Below are positions 21,123 through 32,611 of a stretch of 64,000 nt of DNA, piece by piece; position 1 is the first letter of the stretch, and each line of letters opens with the position of its first letter. The stretch is taken from contig CAZXAU010000001.1 in assembly GCA_964638675.1 (NCBI GenBank), forward strand, positions 56,966 through 120,965, read 5' to 3'. Both the position numbers and the translations under genes were made by a program. The notes beneath the pieces are model-generated. The model did not search any database, was not told the origin of the DNA, and saw nothing but the letters and a program-made list of their open reading frames with translations. Source of the stretch: an uncultured Lachnospiraceae bacterium (GTDB lineage Bacteria > Bacillota > Clostridia > Oscillospirales > CAG-272).

Positions 21123-21153
21123 AAAAAACCGCCTTGTGACGGGCGGTTTTTTT
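21123..21153 (-). terminator. Rho-independent terminator ending the four-gene minus-strand operon
   Basis: AAAAAACCGCC ttgtgac GGGCGGTTTTTTT, starting 2 nt after the stop codon of the 652-aa gene. Confidence 0.85.
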
Positions 21154-21154
21154 A

Positions 21155-23113
21155 TTAGCTGATCTGTATAGCTTTTCTCTCGGAATAGATCCGTCCGAAC
21201 TGAGTTTCGTAGACTATACGCACAGTATATGAGCCGGGATATTCATACGAAAGAGTGACTTTCCCGTTTGATATTTCATCATCGGTCAGCCTTCTTTGAT
21301 ATCTCGTTACATATGTCGATGTTTCAAGACATACTCCAATAGGCTTGCAGTTTGAATAATTCCCGAATGAAAGCACAAAGCTCTCTCCGACGGTTGCCTT
21401 TGCTTTACTGACCGCCGCATCTCCTGCCGAAGCATATTCCCACTGTATGCTATCGCTCTTTTTTTCATCCTTATATTCGAGGTATGCCGAGTATTTTCCG
21501 GTTTTCGTATGTGTGAAGCCGTATATTTTATATTTCTTTCCGTTGATCGTCTTTGTCCCTGTTTCGGATATCCTGATTCTTGCACACTCTGTTTTATCGC
21601 ATAAAATTACAAGGTATTCTGCCGATTTATCAAGAATATTGATCTGTGCGATCTCGTTCTCTTTATATACCGACATGTCTCCTTTGTCAAGTGCAAGCGA
21701 GTTGTTATAGCTCATCTTATCAAAGGAGAGTGATATGTCGGGTGACGGAATCCTTTCGGGATATGCATATCTGTAAACCGAATAAATATCGAGAAAATGG
21801 CTTTTGAAGTAGTCATATGTCACGTATGTGCGCGTCATGCAGGGTATAGCGGCTTCCGATATCTGTACATACTTTATTTTATTATCGCTGTCTCTCAGAA
21901 TATCGGTGACGATCGCCATATGACCTCCCGAAAAATCTTTTTGCGTAACGTTGCAGAGCACATCCCCGATTCGGATCTCGTTTTCCGACATATCGAGCTT
22001 TTCCATTCCGTCTATCGTCTCCCATTCATAGGTCGTATATACAAAATCCAAGCCGTATGCATAATCGATCATCGAAGAGCATACTGCTCCGTAGGGATTC
22101 CATGCGTAATATATCCACGATGAATATCCCGGGTCGAGCGGATCACGGTAATCGGATGTGTAAACAACGCTTGCCGGATTCTTTATTGCCGAAAAAAAGG
22201 TATATACTCCGACATCGATTCCGATGTACGTGTTGGTTTTTCTTACCGACGAATAAGGAAAGCCGATTATACTTTCGTTTTCTGACAACTTGTATCTCGA
22301 ATATGGGTCTGCCTGTCCGATCTTATTTTTGTCGATAAATCCGATCGTCATCCCTTCGCCGCTTGCTGTTAGGACATTGTCGCAAAAGACCGAAAGCCGT
22401 GCAAGCATATTGTTTATCCCCGGATTGCTTGGAGAATCGTGTGTCAAACCGTTTTCAAACCTCTGTACAAGTGAATCCCCTCTCCCTTTTACCAGTCGGT
22501 AATCCATCATTTCAAGATATTCTGGGGTTGAAAATTCGCTCTTTGAAGTAAAAATTCTGATATATTCGGTGTTTGCACTCGTTATAAAGGTTCTCGGTCC
22601 CATAGTATCGCCGTAGACGCAATATCTTACAAGATTCTTGTCGGCGTCATATTCAACAAGATTGGAATATGAGCAGGGATAACCCGGAAATGCAATACTG
22701 AGCGTATACATTTCGCCCGGCGAAACCTTTATATACCCGCTCCGCATCATCTCGTCGGAATCCGCTTCTCTGCCGTCAGAGCCTATTGTACCTTTTTCAA
22801 AATACCCGTCGAACAGATTGGTTTCGGGTTCTTGCGTTTCACTGTCGGTCGGTTTTATCGGAGTGATCGGTGTAATCGTGGTAATCGATGTGATTGGAAT
22901 AATCGGAGTAAGCGGCGGAATCGACGGATAGCCTTCTTCAGGCGTTTGCGTTATTCCGGGGAAAGGTATGGCGGTATGTGCTCCCGTTAAACAGAGCAAG
23001 ATAACAAGCGCTATACATACTGCGGTCAGAATCAGAGCGACAGACGGCAGAATTATTTTTTTCAATACTCCTGCGGATACCGTAACGGAAGATTGATTAT
23101 TGGAGTTGTTCAT
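21155..23113 (-). CDS. Membrane-anchored extracytoplasmic protein with a Pro/Ile/Thr linker and a putative NlpC/P60-like (papain-fold) Cys...His region
   Basis: Single N-terminal TM (ILPSVALILTAVCIALVILLCLTG) and linker PPLTPIIPITSITTITPITPIKPT. YGAVCSSMIDYAYG (Cys345) and IRIGDVLCNVTQKDFSGGHMAIVTDI (His398) lie 53 residues apart. Separated by 24 nt from the SPFH gene stop. Confidence 0.55.
   Translation of the reverse strand: MNNSNNQSSVTVSAGVLKKIILPSVALILTAVCIALVILLCLTGAHTAIPFPGITQTPEEGYPSIPPLTPIIPITSITTITPITPIKPTDSETQEPETNLFDGYFEKGTIGSDGREADSDEMMRSGYIKVSPGEMYTLSIAFPGYPCSYSNLVEYDADKNLVRYCVYGDTMGPRTFITSANTEYIRIFTSKSEFSTPEYLEMMDYRLVKGRGDSLVQRFENGLTHDSPSNPGINNMLARLSVFCDNVLTASGEGMTIGFIDKNKIGQADPYSRYKLSENESIIGFPYSSVRKTNTYIGIDVGVYTFFSAIKNPASVVYTSDYRDPLDPGYSSWIYYAWNPYGAVCSSMIDYAYGLDFVYTTYEWETIDGMEKLDMSENEIRIGDVLCNVTQKDFSGGHMAIVTDILRDSDNKIKYVQISEAAIPCMTRTYVTYDYFKSHFLDIYSVYRYAYPERIPSPDISLSFDKMSYNNSLALDKGDMSVYKENEIAQINILDKSAEYLVILCDKTECARIRISETGTKTINGKKYKIYGFTHTKTGKYSAYLEYKDEKKSDSIQWEYASAGDAAVSKAKATVGESFVLSFGNYSNCKPIGVCLETSTYVTRYQRRLTDDEISNGKVTLSYEYPGSYTVRIVYETQFGRIYSERKAIQIS
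22847..22915 (-). repeat. About seven tandem 9-bp units encoding the (P/T)-I-T linker
   Basis: On the plus strand: GGTTTTATC GGAGTGATC GGTGTAATC GTGGTAATC GATGTGATT GGAATAATC GGAGTAAGC. Confidence 0.7.
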
Positions 23114-23137
23114 ATAACATCAAATTGATCTATCCGA

Positions 23138-24454
23138 TCAGACCAAGTCGTTATCATCAAATTTGTCTCCGCATTCGGGACAGAATTTCGGAGGATTTTG
23201 CGGATCATCGGGAATCCATCCGCACTTGTTGCATCTGAATTGTCCGCTCGGACGTTTTGCACCGCATTCCGAACAGAATTTGCCGCTGTTTACATTGCCG
23301 CAAGAGCATTTCCATGTGCCGTCATTTGCCGGTTTCTTTTCACCGCAGGATGAGCAGAATTTTCCCGAATTCTCATTTCCGCATTTCGGGCATTTCCATG
23401 TGTTTTCGCTCTTTTCAGGAGCTTTTTGCTGATTTTGTGCCTGCTGCTGAGCCGCAACACCGTAGAGATTCTGTGCTGTGTTTCCGCCGGCACCCTGAGC
23501 TACGCCCATTCCCATAAATCCGAGCATTGCTCCGCCCGAGTTTGATGCGGCTGCCTTCATTGCCTCGGCTTGTGCGTCGACCATAGCCGCCGCACCCATT
23601 GATACGTCACGGTAGACCGCTTTTTTCTGAAGCTCTTTTATAAGCTTTTCATCTTCCGCCGATGCACTGACCGAGTTTACACCAAACTGTGCTATAGTTA
23701 TGCCCCGTGTTTCTGCCCATTTTTTTGAAAGCACATCGTTGAGGGCGTCGGCTATTTCAAGTGTATGCCCTGGAAGTGAGCTGTAACGGACTCCCATATC
23801 GGAGATCTTTGCGAATGCCGGCTGAAGTGCGGTGAGAAGCTCGCTTTTGAGCTGGCTGTCAATTGTCGAACGTGTATAGCTTTCACTTACATTTCCGGTG
23901 ACATTCGTATAGAAAAGTATCGGGTCTGTGATCCTGTATGAATATTCGCCGTTACATCTGATAGCGATATCGATATCAAGTCCTATGTTTTTGTCGACAA
24001 CTCTGAAAGGAACGGGTGTTGCCGTACCGTATTTGTTTCCGACTATCTCTTTTGTATTGATATAGTATACCCGCTGGTCACGTCCGGTATCTCCGCCGTA
24101 TGTGAAGCGTTTGCCTATATCCTTGAAGGTATTGAGAATACCTGTGCCCAGTTTTCCCGTAAAGATCGAGGGAGATGTTGTTGATGAGTATTTGAATTCG
24201 CCCGGTTCTGCACAAAGTTCGACTACCTTTCCGCCGTCAACGATCAGCATACACTGACCGTCGCTTACGGCAACGACCGAACCGTCGGATATTACATTAT
24301 CGCTTCCTTTTGTGTTGGAAGATCTTGAGCTTGTTTTCTTTCGTCCCTTGCAGACGAGAGTGTCCGATGACATCGAATCGCAGTAAAAATATTCCTTCCA
24401 CTGATCGGCAAGATTTCCTCCGAGTGATCCTGCAAATGCCTTGATAAGTCCCAT
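23138..24454 (-). CDS. SPFH (Band-7_1 / YdjI-like) protein with three C-terminal zinc ribbons
   Basis: AAGGAG SD. The N-terminus MGLIKAFAGSLGGNLADQWKEYFYCDS and body are typical of the YdjI / 'virion core protein' SPFH family. The C-terminus carries CPKC..CSSC, CSC..CSEC and CNKC..CPEC. Confidence 0.75.
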   Translation of the reverse strand: MGLIKAFAGSLGGNLADQWKEYFYCDSMSSDTLVCKGRKKTSSRSSNTKGSDNVISDGSVVAVSDGQCMLIVDGGKVVELCAEPGEFKYSSTTSPSIFTGKLGTGILNTFKDIGKRFTYGGDTGRDQRVYYINTKEIVGNKYGTATPVPFRVVDKNIGLDIDIAIRCNGEYSYRITDPILFYTNVTGNVSESYTRSTIDSQLKSELLTALQPAFAKISDMGVRYSSLPGHTLEIADALNDVLSKKWAETRGITIAQFGVNSVSASAEDEKLIKELQKKAVYRDVSMGAAAMVDAQAEAMKAAASNSGGAMLGFMGMGVAQGAGGNTAQNLYGVAAQQQAQNQQKAPEKSENTWKCPKCGNENSGKFCSSCGEKKPANDGTWKCSCGNVNSGKFCSECGAKRPSGQFRCNKCGWIPDDPQNPPKFCPECGDKFDDNDLV

Positions 24455-24586
24455 TGTTTTCTCCTTTTTGTTATTGGCTATTATTCTGAAATGTTGTTTT
24501 GTGGTCTTTTGCGGAAGGTTTCCCCACCTTCAAAGATTTTACGGAATGTAAATTTTACATATTGTAAAATGAAAAATGAATTTAAA

Positions 24587-25393
24587 TCAGAAATGTCCTC
24601 CGTGATGCGAGCCTCCGCCCGAATGGCCGCCTGAGCCTCCGCCCGATCTTCCGCCCGATGACGAATCGGGTTTGGGTACCTTTGTCAGGGTACTGTACAG
24701 GAAGCGGTCTCTCGATTCGGTGATCGTGATATCCCGGTTTTCAAAATATCTTGAAGCACCTCTCTGTTTTTTAACGGTGTCCATTTTGGATCTCATCGAC
24801 AGTACAACGACAAGCGAAATTACTGCCCCGATAATAAGCGATATCAGAGCGTATGTCAGACATGAGCTCATGCTTTTTCCCACAATAAATCTTTCATTTT
24901 CGCTGTTGCCCGAGAACTCGAGTGCAAGCTCGGCAAATTTCACTGCGGCACCGTCAAAATTGTTTGCACGAAGCAGCGGCATTATCGCCCCATTGAGTCT
25001 GTCGCCTTCATCGTACGTGATCTTACCGACATATTCACCGTGTCTTACATATATATCGAATGAACGGCTGATCGTTCCGAGATAGAGAAGCACTCCGCTT
25101 TCGCAATAGTTTCCGTTTAAATACATCCTCTCGGCATCGTCGTCACGTATGCTGTCATTTGAATTCACATAGTTTGTGTAATAAATTATAACAGAACAGT
25201 TGTATTTTTCATATGCTTCGTCTATAAGACGATTTATTCTGTTGGCACTTTCTGAGCTTATTGTTCCTGTATGATCGATCAGTTCTCCTTTATTATAGAT
25301 CCTCTCCTTTGTTGCAAACGAGGGGATTAAAGAGAGGGCGATCATCAATACCGCAAGAATAAGGCAATAAAATATTTTATATCTTTTTCTCAT
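24587..25393 (-). CDS. TPM-domain membrane protein (YdjH-like)
   Basis: Start moved to ATG 25393 (GAGGGGGA SD). Signal/TM, then a TPM-like domain (HTGTISSESANRINRLIDEAYEKYNCSVIIYYT ... GVLLYLG), then a TM, then a Gly/His-rich tail GGRSGGGSGGHSGGGSHHGGHF. Confidence 0.7.
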   Translation of the reverse strand: MRKRYKIFYCLILAVLMIALSLIPSFATKERIYNKGELIDHTGTISSESANRINRLIDEAYEKYNCSVIIYYTNYVNSNDSIRDDDAERMYLNGNYCESGVLLYLGTISRSFDIYVRHGEYVGKITYDEGDRLNGAIMPLLRANNFDGAAVKFAELALEFSGNSENERFIVGKSMSSCLTYALISLIIGAVISLVVVLSMRSKMDTVKKQRGASRYFENRDITITESRDRFLYSTLTKVPKPDSSSGGRSGGGSGGHSGGGSHHGGHF

Positions 25394-25403
25394 GCTGTCC
25401 CCC

Positions 25404-26492
25404 TCAAAGTATGAATATAAGAAGCAGTGACAGAAGAGCACCAATTCCTAAAGTCATGGATGCAAGCCATGCAAAAAATCTGCCGTAATCAACAGGTAGC
25501 TCACCCGAGGCTTTACCTGTCTCACCGTTCATTGCAAACTGATAATTTTTTCCTCTGTATTTCGTATTCAGCATCCACACGGGAAAGAGTGCATATATGA
25601 CACCTGAATTTGTATGCTTGATGTTTGAGGATTCTTTTATAACTCCTGTATAGCCGAGAGTGGTTTTGCGGAATTCGCCGTCAATGCTTTCAAGCATCCT
25701 GGCGTTGATCCTCGACTGAAGCTCGGACGGCTCTACATCATATTTATCGGCGTTATATCCTGCAAGATATGACGCATTGAAGGGTTCGGATCTATCGGCA
25801 TTGAACGGCTCGATAGATTCCATGAGTGCATCGTCTGTTTTTTTACTGCCGTCTGCCGGGATATTTCTGAATATGAAATTGCCTTTTCTGTAAAGTCGGA
25901 AGTAATCGGTTTTAGTGTAAATATATCTTGAATCTGACCATGTGAAAACCTTTTTCGCTCTGTATACGACTTTGGCGTCGCTATCGCAGTCGAACAGCCA
26001 GAAGGGAACATATACTCCGGTTACATTTTCGATCCTGTTTTCAGATTTAAAGGCTTTGGGAAGGAGCGGCTTTCCTTTATACAGATTTTTGAGAGCCTGT
26101 TTTGCATCCGATTTGTTCATTCTGAAGGGAATTACTATATCAGGACGGTATATTCCGCTCAGCCGTTCAGGAATCATTGCAGGATTTCCGCAATATACAC
26201 AGGTGGTTGAAGATGTGTTGGCATCGGTTATGAGCTGACCTGCACATGAAGGACAGGTGAAGACCTTGAATTTATCATCTTCTTCGCTTGTGAATTTTCT
26301 GTCTTCGCCCGGGGCTTCAAATTCATCTGCTGTATCTGCTGTATCGCCGATATCACCGACCTCTGAGCTTTCTACAAATTCCTCGATACCTATTTCACAG
26401 CCACAGTATTCACACACCATTTTATCTGATTTTCCGTCATATTCAATTTTTGCGTTACAGTGCGGGCATTTGCTGACTATCGATTCTGACAT
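25404..26492 (-). CDS. Double zinc-ribbon protein with a C-terminal TM (YdjG-like)
   Basis: Start moved to ATG 26492 (GGAG SD 7 nt upstream). Motifs CPHC..CEYC and CPSC..CVYC, the conserved IVIPF and GVYVPFWLFD motifs, and a C-terminal TM. Confidence 0.7.
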   Translation of the reverse strand: MSESIVSKCPHCNAKIEYDGKSDKMVCEYCGCEIGIEEFVESSEVGDIGDTADTADEFEAPGEDRKFTSEEDDKFKVFTCPSCAGQLITDANTSSTTCVYCGNPAMIPERLSGIYRPDIVIPFRMNKSDAKQALKNLYKGKPLLPKAFKSENRIENVTGVYVPFWLFDCDSDAKVVYRAKKVFTWSDSRYIYTKTDYFRLYRKGNFIFRNIPADGSKKTDDALMESIEPFNADRSEPFNASYLAGYNADKYDVEPSELQSRINARMLESIDGEFRKTTLGYTGVIKESSNIKHTNSGVIYALFPVWMLNTKYRGKNYQFAMNGETGKASGELPVDYGRFFAWLASMTLGIGALLSLLLIFIL

Positions 26493-26665
26493 GACAATCT
26501 CCATTCTGCCGCCGGAGCGGCGGCACAAATCATTTAGGGAATTCGCTGAGGCTACTCATCAAATCTGGGCGTGAAACAGATGAACTTCTCCATGCAGGTA
26601 AAACATATCTATCACGCTATCACCTTTCTCGAACTTTCCTTATGCGATCATTCTTTCACATTTCG

Positions 26666-26694
26666 ATTATACCACACAGTGAACGATTTGTCAA
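26666..26694 (-). promoter_or_regulatory. Consensus sigma-A promoter of the zinc-ribbon/TPM/SPFH operon
   Basis: On the minus strand: TTGACA, a 17-nt spacer, then TGgTATAAT (extended -10). This leaves a leader of about 165 nt before ATG 26492. Confidence 0.8.
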
Positions 26695-26811: not shown

Positions 26812-26840
26812 TTGACAACAGTGAAAGAATATGGTATTAT
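26812..26840 (+). promoter_or_regulatory. Near-consensus sigma-A promoter facing the DNRLRE-protein gene
   Basis: TTGACA, a 17-nt spacer, then TGgTATTAT. It is divergent from the promoter at 26666-26694. Confidence 0.75.
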
Positions 26841-26846
26841 GATATT

Positions 26847-27015
26847 GTAGAAAAGTAACCATAGATAACTCGCAATCCCCGATGCAACGTCAGTGCTGTT
26901 GAGGTATTCTTGAATCTATATAATGCTATGGTGCGGTGAAGCATCACCGTCAGGAATATTTTTGAATAATAAGGCACATAAGCTTCGGGACTCATAGGGG
27001 ACTTATGTGCTTTTT
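26847..27015 (+). ncRNA. Candidate leader RNA / small RNA of about 170 nt, bounded by a promoter and an intrinsic terminator
   Basis: The predicted TSS is about 7 nt after the -10. There is an internal hairpin CGGTGA agca TCACCG. The terminator is GCACATAAG ...19 nt... CTTATGTGC followed by TTTTT at 27011-27015. No ORF with an RBS lies inside. Confidence 0.45.
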
Positions 27016-27214: not shown

Positions 27215-30200
27215 ATGTTCAAAAAAAGCAAAGCATTGACAGCGTTATTGCTTACTGTCGTAATACTTTTCGGTTCTGTCCTGGGTGGCGTATTCGCACT
27301 TGAATCGGACAAATTGACCAATGCATCGGATATGACATCCGTAATGCCGGGCGAGCTGTCCGGATTGACCGATTTGAGTCATGAATTCAGTGACGGAGCA
27401 GTAATCGGTAAGGTTGCGGAAGTCACCTCACTGCGTGATGAAAATGTAAAGCATTTTCGTCTTGATAACGGAACATTTGAAGCGGTCATGTATCCTTATC
27501 CGGTACATAGACAGGATTCTGACGGCGTCTGGCAGGATATCGACAATTCTCTTGCACTGAAAAACGACGGAATGCTGAAGGTTTACGCAACATCAGATTC
27601 AAGAGTGAAATTTGCGGATTCATTCAAGTCAAATTCAGAGTTGTACAGCTTGAGCGAAAACGGTTATTCGATATCGATGGCATTGATAGAAAATGAACCG
27701 TTAAGGTACACTGGAACTCTGAATGCCGGACTTGAAAATAAATCTAAGATCATCGTAAGCAGCGGTGAAAAATACTCAGCCGAAAAGGCTTTTGATTCGC
27801 TTGAGCAGGCGGCAAAGATCAATAATAAAAGCTCGGTCCTCTACTGCAATGTAAGAGCGAATACCGACATTCAATACATTTTGCAGGAAAATGACATTAA
27901 AGAGAATATAATAGTCAAAGCTCCGGGTGAAAGCTATGAATATCGCTTCGGAATTGCTCTTGAAGGGCTTACAGCCTCGCTTGATAGATCGGGCGTCATC
28001 AATCTTTATGATGCCGAAAGCGGCGAGCTGAAATATATTATGCCCGCACCATATATGTATGACATTGGCGGTGAATATTCAAATGATGTATCATATGATA
28101 TACAACAGCTTCGTGACGGCAGTTATCTGCTTACTGTAAGCGCTGATGAGAAGTGGATGAACTCAAAGGAGCGTGTATTCCCGGTTACTATAGACCCGAC
28201 ATTGACATTGCCGAGTTCAGCTTTTGACTCATATACCGATAAGTCAAATCCCGATGAAAATTACGGTCTTGATGAGAAAATGTGGGTGAGCAGCGAAAAA
28301 ACTGCATATATACATATGGCTGTTCCGAACCTTCCGGCAACCGCAACCCTAAATTCCGCAACTTTGCATGTTCCGTACTATTTTAATAAAACAACAGGAA
28401 GCTTGCTTGCCGCTGCATATCAAGTGTATGAAGTTTGGTTTGAATCTGCGATAACATATAACAACACACCGGATTGTTCAACACTATCTCTCTCAAATAC
28501 AACATTGATCGCCTCTTCGTCTGTAACTCAGGCAACCCCCGGTTGGGCTGAATTTGATATAACAAATGCGGCGGTCGATTGGTATGCTGATCCGACCACA
28601 AACTACGGAGTTGCTATCAAGAGATGGATAAGTCCGTATTCAAACAACTCGTCCGTTATTTTGAAATCGTATGAGTCAGGAAGCGATTGGGCATATATCA
28701 GCGTAAACTATATTAACTATATTCCGAGCGGTGTGTATGCATTCAGATCAAAACTCAGCAGTACCAGATGGATAAAAGTAACCGGTAATTCAGCGGGCAG
28801 TTATCTCCAACATGTCAGCTTAACAAATTTCCCTGCGGACGCTGAAGTTTTTGACCGTTCGTGTCTGTTTAAGATCTACAATGTTCCGGGTACTGTCAGA
28901 TATATTATACGCTCAATGTTGAACAATGAACTGACCTTTGATATTTCCGGAGATAAGTTTGTTACAAAAAAGATATCCAATATTGACAGCGAGGTTCCTC
29001 CGGAGGATAGCTTCTATATCAACTGGGACGGATACGGATTCAAAATACGTCCCTACTATTCCGATAAGATAGTCAATATATCTTCAACATCCAATCCGGA
29101 TCTCACAACTTTGAGCAACGCTGATGCCGGATCGGGAGCAAGATGGGAACTGGTTCAGTATACGGGCAATAGCAAGCGTGGATATACTTTAAACCCAAAT
29201 ACTATGTTTTTAAAGCCCGGAACCGAAGTAACATTAAGTACGATCGTTTGGACAACATCTATTGGCTACAATAAACCCGAAATTGTTTTGAATGACGGCT
29301 GTTCAGATGTAGCATCCCTTGCATGGAACAGAAGTACCGGTATGGGAAAACTGGTGATAAATAAAACCGGTTCGTTTGGCGGCTACATAAGAATACTCAA
29401 AGAAGAAGACCTTAGCGTATACGAGTCTTTATATTTCACCTATGCAGTCAATGTTCCGGTTTCGAGTGGTGACTATTTTGTCATGAACAAAGAAGCAGGG
29501 AAATATATGCAGTTAGATGACGGTGATGCACCGGACTTTAATAATAACGGCGGAATTGCAGAGATTCATTCATTCGACGGAGGAGATTATCAAAAATGGA
29601 CATTTACCCATTTGGGAAGTGGGTATTATAGCATAAGATCTGTTGTCACCGGTTATGCCCTCACAGTTCCGCCGGATAAAGTAACATCCGATAATGTCGA
29701 TTTGGTCTTGAAGCCGTATACCGGTTCTTATAATCAGAAATGGAAGATAACTGTTACAAATAGCGGAGCGTACAAGATCAAAGCAAAGTCATCTGAAAGC
29801 TATACAGAAAAAGATCTTGTTATGGATCTTAAGGATCCAGCATTCTCATATAACGGGCTTAGTATACGGCAGAGAGAGAATGAGGATAGTTCGAGCTATA
29901 GGGACGAGTGGATTATACGAAAATCAAATGATTACACTTTGATGTATATCGGAGATTATGTTGGAGATCCGCAAATGCCTCCTATTTTATCCGATGTAGA
30001 TACAGCATTAAGAAATAATGCCGGCATGAGCGGGTATGCCTACACCTCATTAAATGACGAAGATTTGTTAGGGTGTCTTTCAACAAGTTCAATTTTTTCT
30101 TGTATCACACACGGCGATCAATATGCACTGACAGTGTCAAACGGAATAATTACAGTAAATGATATAAACAGATTGGTGGATGGAGCCTTATCAAATTTGG

Positions 30201-30511
30201 AATTTGTCTGTCTTGGTGCTTGTTCTGTTGGAAGAGGCGGTGCCTCATCTATTAACATGGTTAATGCATTATCCGCCAAAGGCGCACAAAACGTTTTGGG
30301 TTTTAAAGAGAATGTAATAATTCCACATGCAAATCTATGGATGAAAACATTTATGGTAACTCTTTCAACCGGTTGCTCTGTAAAAGATGCTATGGCTGTT
30401 GCCGATGATGCCGTTCAACACGATATCGAATGCCTGTCTTTCGGTGAAATCACAACAAATGAAGAATATCGTTATATATGCGGATCTGATGAGATCGCCC
30501 CATGTAATTAA
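27215..30511 (+). CDS. Secreted multidomain protein: WapA/RHS-like N-terminal region, DNRLRE domain, two ricin-type beta-trefoil lectin domains, C-terminal caspase-like (His-Gly ... Cys) region
   Basis: AGGGAG SD and a signal peptide. The DNRLRE-type segment is about aa 325-500 (DSYTDKSNPDENYG...VYEVWFESAITYNNTP...GWAEFDIT). QxW repeats: YQKWTF, NQKWKI, RDEWII. The C-terminal region has SCITHGD and EFVCLGACSVG. Confidence 0.7.
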   Translation: MFKKSKALTALLLTVVILFGSVLGGVFALESDKLTNASDMTSVMPGELSGLTDLSHEFSDGAVIGKVAEVTSLRDENVKHFRLDNGTFEAVMYPYPVHRQDSDGVWQDIDNSLALKNDGMLKVYATSDSRVKFADSFKSNSELYSLSENGYSISMALIENEPLRYTGTLNAGLENKSKIIVSSGEKYSAEKAFDSLEQAAKINNKSSVLYCNVRANTDIQYILQENDIKENIIVKAPGESYEYRFGIALEGLTASLDRSGVINLYDAESGELKYIMPAPYMYDIGGEYSNDVSYDIQQLRDGSYLLTVSADEKWMNSKERVFPVTIDPTLTLPSSAFDSYTDKSNPDENYGLDEKMWVSSEKTAYIHMAVPNLPATATLNSATLHVPYYFNKTTGSLLAAAYQVYEVWFESAITYNNTPDCSTLSLSNTTLIASSSVTQATPGWAEFDITNAAVDWYADPTTNYGVAIKRWISPYSNNSSVILKSYESGSDWAYISVNYINYIPSGVYAFRSKLSSTRWIKVTGNSAGSYLQHVSLTNFPADAEVFDRSCLFKIYNVPGTVRYIIRSMLNNELTFDISGDKFVTKKISNIDSEVPPEDSFYINWDGYGFKIRPYYSDKIVNISSTSNPDLTTLSNADAGSGARWELVQYTGNSKRGYTLNPNTMFLKPGTEVTLSTIVWTTSIGYNKPEIVLNDGCSDVASLAWNRSTGMGKLVINKTGSFGGYIRILKEEDLSVYESLYFTYAVNVPVSSGDYFVMNKEAGKYMQLDDGDAPDFNNNGGIAEIHSFDGGDYQKWTFTHLGSGYYSIRSVVTGYALTVPPDKVTSDNVDLVLKPYTGSYNQKWKITVTNSGAYKIKAKSSESYTEKDLVMDLKDPAFSYNGLSIRQRENEDSSSYRDEWIIRKSNDYTLMYIGDYVGDPQMPPILSDVDTALRNNAGMSGYAYTSLNDEDLLGCLSTSSIFSCITHGDQYALTVSNGIITVNDINRLVDGALSNLEFVCLGACSVGRGGASSINMVNALSAKGAQNVLGFKENVIIPHANLWMKTFMVTLSTGCSVKDAMAVADDAVQHDIECLSFGEITTNEEYRYICGSDEIAPCN

Positions 30512-31753: not shown

Positions 31754-31761
31754 TCAATTGA

Positions 31762-31850
31762 CGATACAACAGGGGTGCCTTTTGGCTGAGATGGGAAACC
31801 GAACCCTTTTAACCTGATACGGATAATGCCGGCGTAGGGAGCAATGTACC
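31762..31850 (+). promoter_or_regulatory. TPP (THI-box) riboswitch aptamer
   Basis: GGGGTGC...GCTGAGA...ACCC...AACCTGATACGGATAATGCCGGCGTAGGGA matches the conserved THI element core. A weak AT-rich hairpin plus T-run follows at about 31848-31872. A thiamine transporter gene lies downstream. Confidence 0.9.
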
Positions 31851-32029
31851 GTGAAAAATTTTTCGGTTTTTCGATCGACCTGACTGTAGATTTGTTTTTG
31901 ATTTGATTTTGCGATCGGATCTGTTCCGGGATTTTCTTTTCGGTAATAAAGTTCTGCTGCGGCTTGCCGCGGCTTTTGTTTTATTCGGGAAATAGATATA
32001 TATACTGTACCGTCAGAAAGGAATTTCTT

Positions 32030-32611
32030 ATGAACAAAAGAAATCAAAATCTATTCATCCTTGTCGAATGTGCGGCTATGATCGCTCTTTCGACCGTACT
32101 GAGCCTTTTGAAGGTAATTCAGATGCCTCTCGGCGGCTCGGTAACTCTTTTCAGTATGCTTCCTGTCTGCTTTATTTCTATAAGGCACGGTGTGAAGTGG
32201 GGACTCGGAGCTGCATTTATTTATTCTGTAGGACAGTTTTTCCTTGGCGGATCACTTGGCTGGGGACTTGATCTTACTACACTTGTGATATGTGCACTTC
32301 TTGATTACATAATCGCTTATACGGTGCTCGGTCTTTCGGGAATCTTTGCAAAAAAAGGTTCTGCCGGCATAGTTTCGGGAACTGTTATGGTTTTGGTTTT
32401 ACGTTTTGCCTGTCATTTTCTCTCAGGCGTAACCATTTGGGAACGTTTGAAGCCTTGGGAGCTTTTCGGAAAAACATTTGAGAATATGCCTGTGCTTTAC
32501 TCCTTCTGTTACAACGGTTTTTATATGATCCCCGAGATAGTTTTCACAACTGTTGCTATCATCGTACTCATAAAAATTCCCGTAATCAAAAAGCTGCTGA
32601 TCAAACAGTGA
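32030..32611 (+). CDS. thiT: Thiamine ECF transporter S component ThiT (YuaJ family)
   Basis: Start moved to ATG 32030 (AAAGGAA SD). Six-span protein beginning MNKRNQNLFILVECAAMIALSTVLSLL. It sits under TPP riboswitch control. Confidence 0.85.
   Translation: MNKRNQNLFILVECAAMIALSTVLSLLKVIQMPLGGSVTLFSMLPVCFISIRHGVKWGLGAAFIYSVGQFFLGGSLGWGLDLTTLVICALLDYIIAYTVLGLSGIFAKKGSAGIVSGTVMVLVLRFACHFLSGVTIWERLKPWELFGKTFENMPVLYSFCYNGFYMIPEIVFTTVAIIVLIKIPVIKKLLIKQ

Follow-up and report, generated by a model that had tools for sequence, protein, structure and literature searches.

A pspA-less SPFH, zinc-ribbon and TPM gene triad followed by a gene for a predicted surface-polymer enzyme in an uncultured Lachnospiraceae bacterium

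We analysed a 64-kb stretch of contig CAZXAU010000001.1 from an uncultured Lachnospiraceae bacterium (hereafter, the window), in which four genes of the minus strand, denoted g1 to g4 in the order of transcription, are enclosed by a promoter and an intrinsic terminator and have uvrA, uvrB and a methyltransferase gene as neighbours (Table 1). The locus is probably one transcription unit under a housekeeping-type promoter, and its first three genes make up an ordinary example of a triad of SPFH, zinc-ribbon (ZnR) and TPM genes that is very widespread in Bacillota. The fourth gene is a species-specific downstream neighbour that shares the promoter and the terminator and does not belong to the conserved module. 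We assign a probability of about 0.77 to the whole reading, that is, an ordinary pspA-less triad in one transcription unit with a species-specific g4 that encodes a surface-polymer enzyme.

Genes and signals of the transcription unit

The operon promoter is the top match in the scanned region of 8.5 kb, in which we estimate the chance expectation of a perfect match at less than about 0.01. A sigmaW-type motif (TGAAAC-N15-18-CGTA) does not occur anywhere in the window. The inferred 5' leader, which was read from the sequence, folds with ordinary stability (z = -0.84), and an Rfam scan of the whole window matched no family in it. For g1 and g2, the longest open reading frames (ORFs) extend further upstream than the ATG codons that are likely to be the true starts, and exactly the protein lengths given in Table 1 resulted for all four genes when they were called independently on further metagenome contigs of this organism. 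Gaps of 10, 132 and 24 nt separate g1 from g2, g2 from g3 and g3 from g4, respectively. No hairpin or terminator was detected between g3 and g4, so that read-through into g4 from the operon promoter is very probable. The terminator that follows g4, whose stem consists of 5 G-C pairs and of A-U pairs contributed by the flanking A- and U-tracts, was more stable than the folds of all 200 shuffled sequences (0/200), and 3' of it the next gene, which encodes a Methyltransf_32 protein, has a promoter-like site of its own. A previous interpretation of this DNA that used the sequence alone (the sequence-only reading) had described a promoter and a terminator bracketing four co-directional genes, the last of them after a gap of 24 nt; both signals, all four genes and this gap were confirmed.

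Table 1. Positions of the operon's features and of other elements; coordinates refer to the window unless a locus is named.
Feature	Position	Strand	Details
Promoter-like site of the next gene	21061-21033		3' of the terminator
Intrinsic terminator	21123-21152	minus	11-bp stem, 8-nt loop, T-run; -15.2 kcal/mol, z = -3.99
g4	21155-23113	minus	ORF; 652 aa
Central-domain family site in g4	21719-22450		other family sites: loci L089, L092, L099, L100; L096 3678-6230
g3	23138-24454	minus	ORF; 438 aa; Shine-Dalgarno sequence present
Imperfect palindrome in the g2-g3 gap	24536-24570		AT-rich; 17-nt arms, 82% complementary; no strand
g2	24587-25393	minus	268 aa; ATG at 25393 (likely start) after AGGAG; longest ORF 24587-25444
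g1	25404-26492	minus	362 aa; ATG at 26492 (likely start), GGAG with 6-nt spacer; longest ORF 25404-26528
5' leader (inferred)	26493-26659	minus	about 167 nt
Leader hairpin	26508-26524	minus	7 bp, all G-C: GCCGCCG-CTC-CGGCGGC
Operon promoter	26666-26694	minus	sigma-70-type, TTGACA-17-TATAAT with extended -10 TG; 12/12 consensus match
Divergent promoter	26812-26840	plus	near-consensus, 11/12 with TG
Inverted repeat	26965-27010	minus	9 bp
Gene for secreted protein	27215-30511	plus	1098 aa
TPP riboswitch	31761-31857	plus	RF00059, 64.1 bits; 5' of ORF 31964-32611

The leader also contains a short hairpin directly 5' of the Shine-Dalgarno sequence of g1. It is not a terminator, because it is not followed by a T-run, and it may influence the initiation of g1 translation.

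The triad and the absence of pspA

The g1 protein, as read from its sequence, begins with two CxxC...CxxC zinc ribbons, continues with a middle domain and ends in a transmembrane (TM) helix. Its best Pfam match, with 25.7 bits (cut-off 29), is Zn_Ribbon_TF, the family named for YdjG by Popp et al. (2022). Over its full length, g1 is 27% identical (E = 2e-58) to the product of the gene located between the SPFH and TPM genes of Enterococcus gallinarum, and in most surveyed loci a homologue of g1 lies beside the SPFH gene. The g2 protein starts with a signal or TM segment, which is followed by a TPM domain, another TM helix and, at the C-terminus, a tail rich in Gly and His. It belongs to TPM_phosphatase (PF04536; 38.3 bits, cut-off 22.1), a family that was also matched by the 268-aa g2 from the independent gene call. 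The g3 protein is soluble and TM-free, with a Band_7_1 domain (PF13421; 64.6 bits, cut-off 24) that a Gln/Ala-rich linker joins to three zinc ribbons at the C-terminus (residues 355-429); the Pfam match to DZR was sub-threshold. Sequence searches of the PDB with g2 and g3 returned no informative relatives. In the corresponding operon of Bacillus subtilis, one protein comprises two ZnRs, an uncharacterized domain and a TM segment, another a TPM domain and a low-complexity tail, and the third a band-7 domain and a C-terminal ZnR (Ravi et al. 2024, PMC11237479). Compared with these published architectures, g1-g3 indeed match ydjG-ydjH-ydjI in order and in architecture, as had been proposed from the sequence; the Pfam check bore out the family assignments of g2 and g3 above the cut-offs, and that of the g1 zinc ribbon stayed below it.

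In one genome per GTDB species, we found 553 loci with an SPFH relative and fetched the best 80 with flanks of about 9 kb; Clostridia account for most of these 80, and Lysinibacillus, Treponema and others for some. All 8000 scored candidate relatives of g3 had E values of at most 0.001, and the 120 best listed were mostly 60-70% identical. The probe for PspA was a single B. subtilis PspA sequence, validated only by its score of 142 bits on PF04012, and was searched against six-frame translations with the HMMER filters off. Nothing better than E = 0.5 was found in the 64-kb window or in the best 80 of the 553 SPFH loci. When neighbouring genes within about 6 kb were clustered, only three recurrent families emerged, namely, SPFH, zinc-ribbon and TPM. 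A RefSeq example is the E. gallinarum replicon NZ_CP116511 (pK205-4a-A), in which the genes for an SPFH protein, a hypothetical protein and a TPM-domain protein (PML87_RS12925-12935) are flanked by dnaX and a gene for a pyridoxal phosphate (PLP) enzyme, with no pspA. Thus, in its closest relatives the triad usually occurs without pspA. The sequence-only reading was correct that no pspA precedes the four genes, given that none is present in the six-frame translation of the window; the absence that it pointed out is, however, not unusual, as a PspA match within about 9 kb is missing from all 80 closest SPFH loci (0/80) and the Enterococcus triad lacks pspA too. Because the triad normally occurs without an adjacent pspA in Clostridia and other non-Bacillus lineages, its absence from this locus is the default state.

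The pspA-less triads of Clostridia, Enterococcus and Lysinibacillus resemble that in the window in consisting of tightly packed genes of the same strand without an adjacent pspA, and their SPFH proteins are 35-82% identical to g3 (g1, 27%). They differ from the window in that the SPFH gene usually comes first and in that none has a homologue of g4. We scored the gene order with hidden Markov models (HMMs) built from the neighbour clusters in 88 SPFH-bearing loci. The order SPFH > ZnR > TPM was found in 30 of these loci and SPFH > ZnR in 14, whereas ZnR > TPM > SPFH, the order of B. subtilis and of the window, was found in 13, including the window itself, two further contigs from its organism and the closest relatives at 70-82% identity. 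The SPFH gene stood alone in 25 loci, some of them on truncated contigs, and the remaining 6 had other layouts. Since two orders (30 vs. 13 loci) coexist among the closest relatives (loci L005-L084), the triad has been rearranged at least once.

In some of the Lachnospiraceae loci with the order SPFH > ZnR, no TPM gene was detected and a Tim44-like protein of about 250 aa with a C-terminal zinc ribbon is encoded behind the zinc-ribbon gene instead (L014, 11463-12245); in the more distantly related Monoglobus, a TIM44-like gene lies directly 5' of the SPFH gene (L098, 3999-4985). This suggests that the Tim44-like protein is an alternative third partner of the scaffold.

The window shares with the pspA-ydjGHI (pspA-samGHI) operon of B. 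subtilis the three protein architectures and the G-H-I gene order, from which most close relatives of the window's triad deviate. It differs from that operon in lacking pspA, both upstream and within the 64 kb, in having a sigma-70-type consensus promoter where B. subtilis has a sigmaW promoter, in the three C-terminal zinc ribbons of its SPFH protein, and in the additional downstream gene g4. In B. subtilis, the membrane foci of YdjI require YdjG and YdjH (Scholz et al. 2021, PMC8581546), such that G and H bring I to the membrane, and I restrains signalling by G and H (PMC8581546; 10.64898/2026.02.06.704340). By analogy, the tail-anchored g1, with its cytoplasmic zinc ribbons, and the TPM protein g2, with its cytoplasmic Gly/His tail, would recruit the soluble g3 to the membrane and anchor it there, and the membrane-bound g3 may scaffold or restrain a complex that senses envelope stress. 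The developmental phenotype of SamGHI is reported to be independent of PspA (Baur et al. 2026, preprint), which is consistent with the triad being a self-standing module, and the prevalence of pspA-less triads fits this recent evidence of PspA-independent roles. Taken alone, the operon matters little, being another example of a module present in thousands of genomes. Given, however, that the triad overwhelmingly lacks pspA outside Bacillus, it merits study in its own right rather than as an accessory of PspA.

The fourth gene: distribution, putative enzyme family and rival explanations

A tblastn search with g4 found no homologue in any of the best 80 SPFH loci. Conversely, in a search of 5.8 billion proteins, only four close homologues of g4 were found (35-42% identity), none of which lies near a gene for an SPFH, TPM or ZnR protein; their neighbours include hpf and proline-biosynthesis genes, a MacB/FtsX ATP-binding cassette (ABC) transporter, and a sortase together with an acyl-ACP (acyl carrier protein) thioesterase. 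Relatives at 70% SPFH identity have an intrinsic terminator immediately behind the SPFH gene and then a gene of the opposite strand, and in the relative at 82% the SPFH gene is followed by a hairpin, with no ORF start in the 80 nt up to the end of the contig. The genes that trail other triads closely on the same strand are unrelated to one another, encoding a Wzy_C/GT28 fusion, an MFS transporter, a GGDEF protein, a WYL regulator, an endonuclease, a class II tRNA synthetase and a MatE transporter. The four-gene layout recurs in two metagenome samples (SRR9335148 and SRR9122728), in which the SPFH protein is 100% identical to that of the window, so these samples represent the same organism and not independent conservation. 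The adjacency of g4 to the triad seems to have arisen by chance in the local gene order and does not look like a system. The sequence-only reading had proposed a scaffold module operonically fused to a possible hydrolase and had named an unrelated distribution of the fourth gene as an outcome that would speak against it; the survey of neighbourhoods gave precisely such a distribution, with the pairing present in 0/80 SPFH loci and next to 0/4 of the close g4 homologues.

In the AlphaFold model of g4 (mean predicted local distance difference test score (pLDDT) of 74), a TM helix at residues 14-43 leads into a disordered Pro/Thr linker that ends near residue 96; beyond it come a beta-sandwich (about 100-210), a central alpha/beta domain (about 215-465) and two immunoglobulin (Ig)-like domains (about 470-652). 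No match to g4 was found in Pfam or NCBIfam, and a Foldseek search of the PDB with the full model matched only the tandem of Ig/FN3 domains, which is uninformative on the enzyme domain. Where the closest homologues carry lipoprotein-type LSGC or LAGC motifs, g4 reads LTGA. With a profile of the central domain (g4 residues about 222-462), 287 proteins were retrieved, mostly of about 420 aa and none with a Pfam domain. In an alignment of 129 family sequences, Cys345 and His398 are invariant (129/129 each), as is a PYS motif, and Glu420 is present in 125/129. In the model of the central domain, Cys345 lies in a helix (340-353), His398 just before a strand (399-407), and Glu420 in the next strand (413-421); the order of the three residues and their placement in the modelled secondary structure correspond to the layout of a papain fold.

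It is plausible that the central domain of g4 belongs to the CHAP/NlpC-P60 superfamily (PF05257, PF00877). The order of the residues is the same, the sub-threshold alignment to CHAP spans exactly Cys345 to Glu420, and the spacing of 53 residues between Cys and His is like that of NlpC/P60 enzymes; by contrast, the N-terminal subdomain of about 120 residues with an invariant PYSS motif is foreign to both CHAP and NlpC/P60. Another member of the family matched Pfam Amidase_6 with E = 0.15, a Foldseek search of BFVD with the central domain (domain pLDDT 71) returned viral models of CHAP, endolysin and NlpC-P60 types at E values of 0.03-0.5, and a PDB sequence search with the family profile gave no match at E ≤ 10. 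The earlier suggestion of a possible surface hydrolase thus stands with regard to the surface anchor and to a plausible Cys-His hydrolase, and remains sub-threshold with regard to the match to CHAP/NlpC-P60.

A closer relationship connects the family to gp26 of phage crAss001. Foldseek matched the central domain of g4 to the model of the crAss001 'hyaluronidase' with E = 1.2e-6, tblastn searches with two family members reached gp26 with E = 4e-40 and 5e-31, and hhalign aligned the g4 family to gp26 residues 441-654 (probability 99.6%, E = 2.6e-24, 202 columns) with conservation of the Cys, His and Glu residues. The PYSS motif of the family reads PYTS in gp26. A tblastn search of phages with the g4 central domain itself found no match, and only the more typical family members reach gp26 directly. 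Taken together, these comparisons show that the central domain of g4 is clearly homologous to the C-terminal region of gp26. The GenBank record of gp26 (AXQ62669.1) names the product 'hyaluronidase', with the note 'Phage tail/CHAP domain', and our literature search on crAss001 gp26 found nothing on its function. The N-terminus of gp26 is that of a tail fibre (Mtd_N and PHROG tail-fibre matches), in place of which g4 has the membrane anchor and the beta-sandwich, along with the two Ig-like domains.

The genomic context of the family points to surface glycopolymers as its target. All four of the cellular members of about 420 aa that were looked up (4/4) lie inside surface-polysaccharide clusters, which contain genes for LicD, glycosyltransferases, Wzx-type Polysacc_synt proteins, Wzy_C or EpsG, ATP-grasp enzymes, acyltransferases and phosphoenolpyruvate (PEP) mutase, and about half of the family proteins of this length bear a lipobox-like motif. 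The family also includes a few surface proteins of Clostridia. From this context, we infer that surface glycopolymers are what the family acts on; g4 is most likely a surface-polymer hydrolase or editor that is co-transcribed with the triad yet functionally independent of it. Anchored at the surface, the protein would cleave or edit a polymer such as a capsule-like or wall-associated glycopolymer, or peptidoglycan. The g4 family, with about 290 members and no Pfam entry, is a by-product of this analysis that is more interesting than the operon itself, and if its members act on capsular polymers, it would link the tailoring of capsules by the host with their recognition or degradation by a gut phage.

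The 24-nt gap, the common promoter and terminator, and the absence of an internal terminator could also be explained if all four genes formed a functional unit, in which a SamGHI-like scaffold controls or localises g4 or is co-induced with it, such that envelope stress leads to remodelling of a surface polymer. Both the TPM domain of g2 and g4 are predicted to be extracytoplasmic, so contact between them would be topologically possible, and the layout is also found in SRR9335148 and SRR9122728. These samples, however, carry the same sequence and hence the same organism, the pairing is absent from the surveyed loci and from the surroundings of the close g4 homologues, the close relatives of the triad carry a terminator behind the SPFH gene, and other triads precede unrelated genes. 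We therefore consider a functional unit unlikely; the same holds for its more specific form, in which a SamGHI-like module would have captured a CHAP-like surface enzyme as a co-expressed effector in this lineage and coupled scaffold assembly to polymer editing, a scenario to which we give little credence. At the other extreme, g4 might be transcriptionally independent, through a promoter of its own within the 3' end of g3 or through RNA processing, with the adjacency being merely positional. A weak promoter-like site (23123-23096, 9/12) and the free-standing homologues of g4 elsewhere agree with this explanation, as does the lack of a Shine-Dalgarno sequence discussed below. The promoter-like site, however, overlaps the start codon of g4, so that a transcript from it would miss the start, and without a terminator or hairpin in the g3-g4 gap, read-through is very likely regardless, which makes independence improbable.

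The homology to gp26 raises the further question of whether g4, instead of being an enzyme of the cell surface, is a remnant of a phage, for instance of a prophage tail-fibre or lysin module. In the family member P0012, the N-terminus is extended by a long segment, and one member gives a faint match to Phage_capsid. Nonetheless, the flanks of the locus consist of uvrA, uvrB, the methyltransferase gene and the triad, with no phage genes, and most members of the family are cellular genes in polysaccharide loci. Furthermore, g4 has a membrane anchor, its closest homologues carry the lipoprotein-type motifs, and PHROGs contains no family for g4 (nor for P0010 or P0012). The GC content of g4 is like that of its neighbours, and horizontal acquisition, for which the base composition was examined, was likewise rejected because GC is unremarkable. 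A phage origin of g4 is thus highly improbable.

Several observations weigh against the preferred reading of an ordinary triad co-transcribed with an unrelated surface enzyme. The likeness of g1-g3 to the B. subtilis proteins is one of published architectures and not of sequence alignment. The PspA probe was one sequence, which a very divergent IM30 protein might escape, and within the genome the search covered the 64-kb window alone. Co-transcription of g4 is suggested solely by the 24-nt gap and the missing terminator, and a Shine-Dalgarno sequence, present before g1, g2 and g3, is not recognisable before g4. Even without conservation, g4 and the triad could be functionally linked in this lineage. 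For the enzyme family, the match of the central domain to Pfam CHAP reached 13.4 bits (cut-off 26, E = 0.11, residues 342-420), and Foldseek hits of this domain in the PDB, to IdeS/Mac-1 and to the NlpC/P60 structure 8er5, were weak (E = 0.38-2.5). When the 129-sequence alignment was compared by hhalign to single LysK-CHAP and MepS sequences, the motifs were in register, but the probabilities (0.6-1.5% vs. 0.04-0.25% for shuffled sequences) were not significant.

The g2-g3 palindrome and elements beyond the operon

The gap between g2 and g3 contains an AT-rich palindrome that occurs in a single copy in the window. In close relatives, this gap is shorter and different, and the palindrome is absent. 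The palindrome might serve as an operator or mark a site of processing. That it is one copy of a dispersed repeat was considered and rejected, given that the element is unique in the window; what had earlier been described as a degenerate repeat fragment between the TPM and SPFH genes is this local palindrome.

The sole Rfam match in the window is a thiamine pyrophosphate (TPP) riboswitch located 5' of a further ORF. Upstream of the operon, a near-consensus promoter oriented away from it is followed by a leader of about 370 nt and by the gene for a 1098-aa secreted protein, in which CBM96, ricin-type lectin and, at the C-terminus, CHAT (caspase-like) domains are unusually combined. Intergenic between the divergent promoters and this gene, there is also an inverted repeat, GCACATAAG...CTTATGTGC, with arms of 9 bp.

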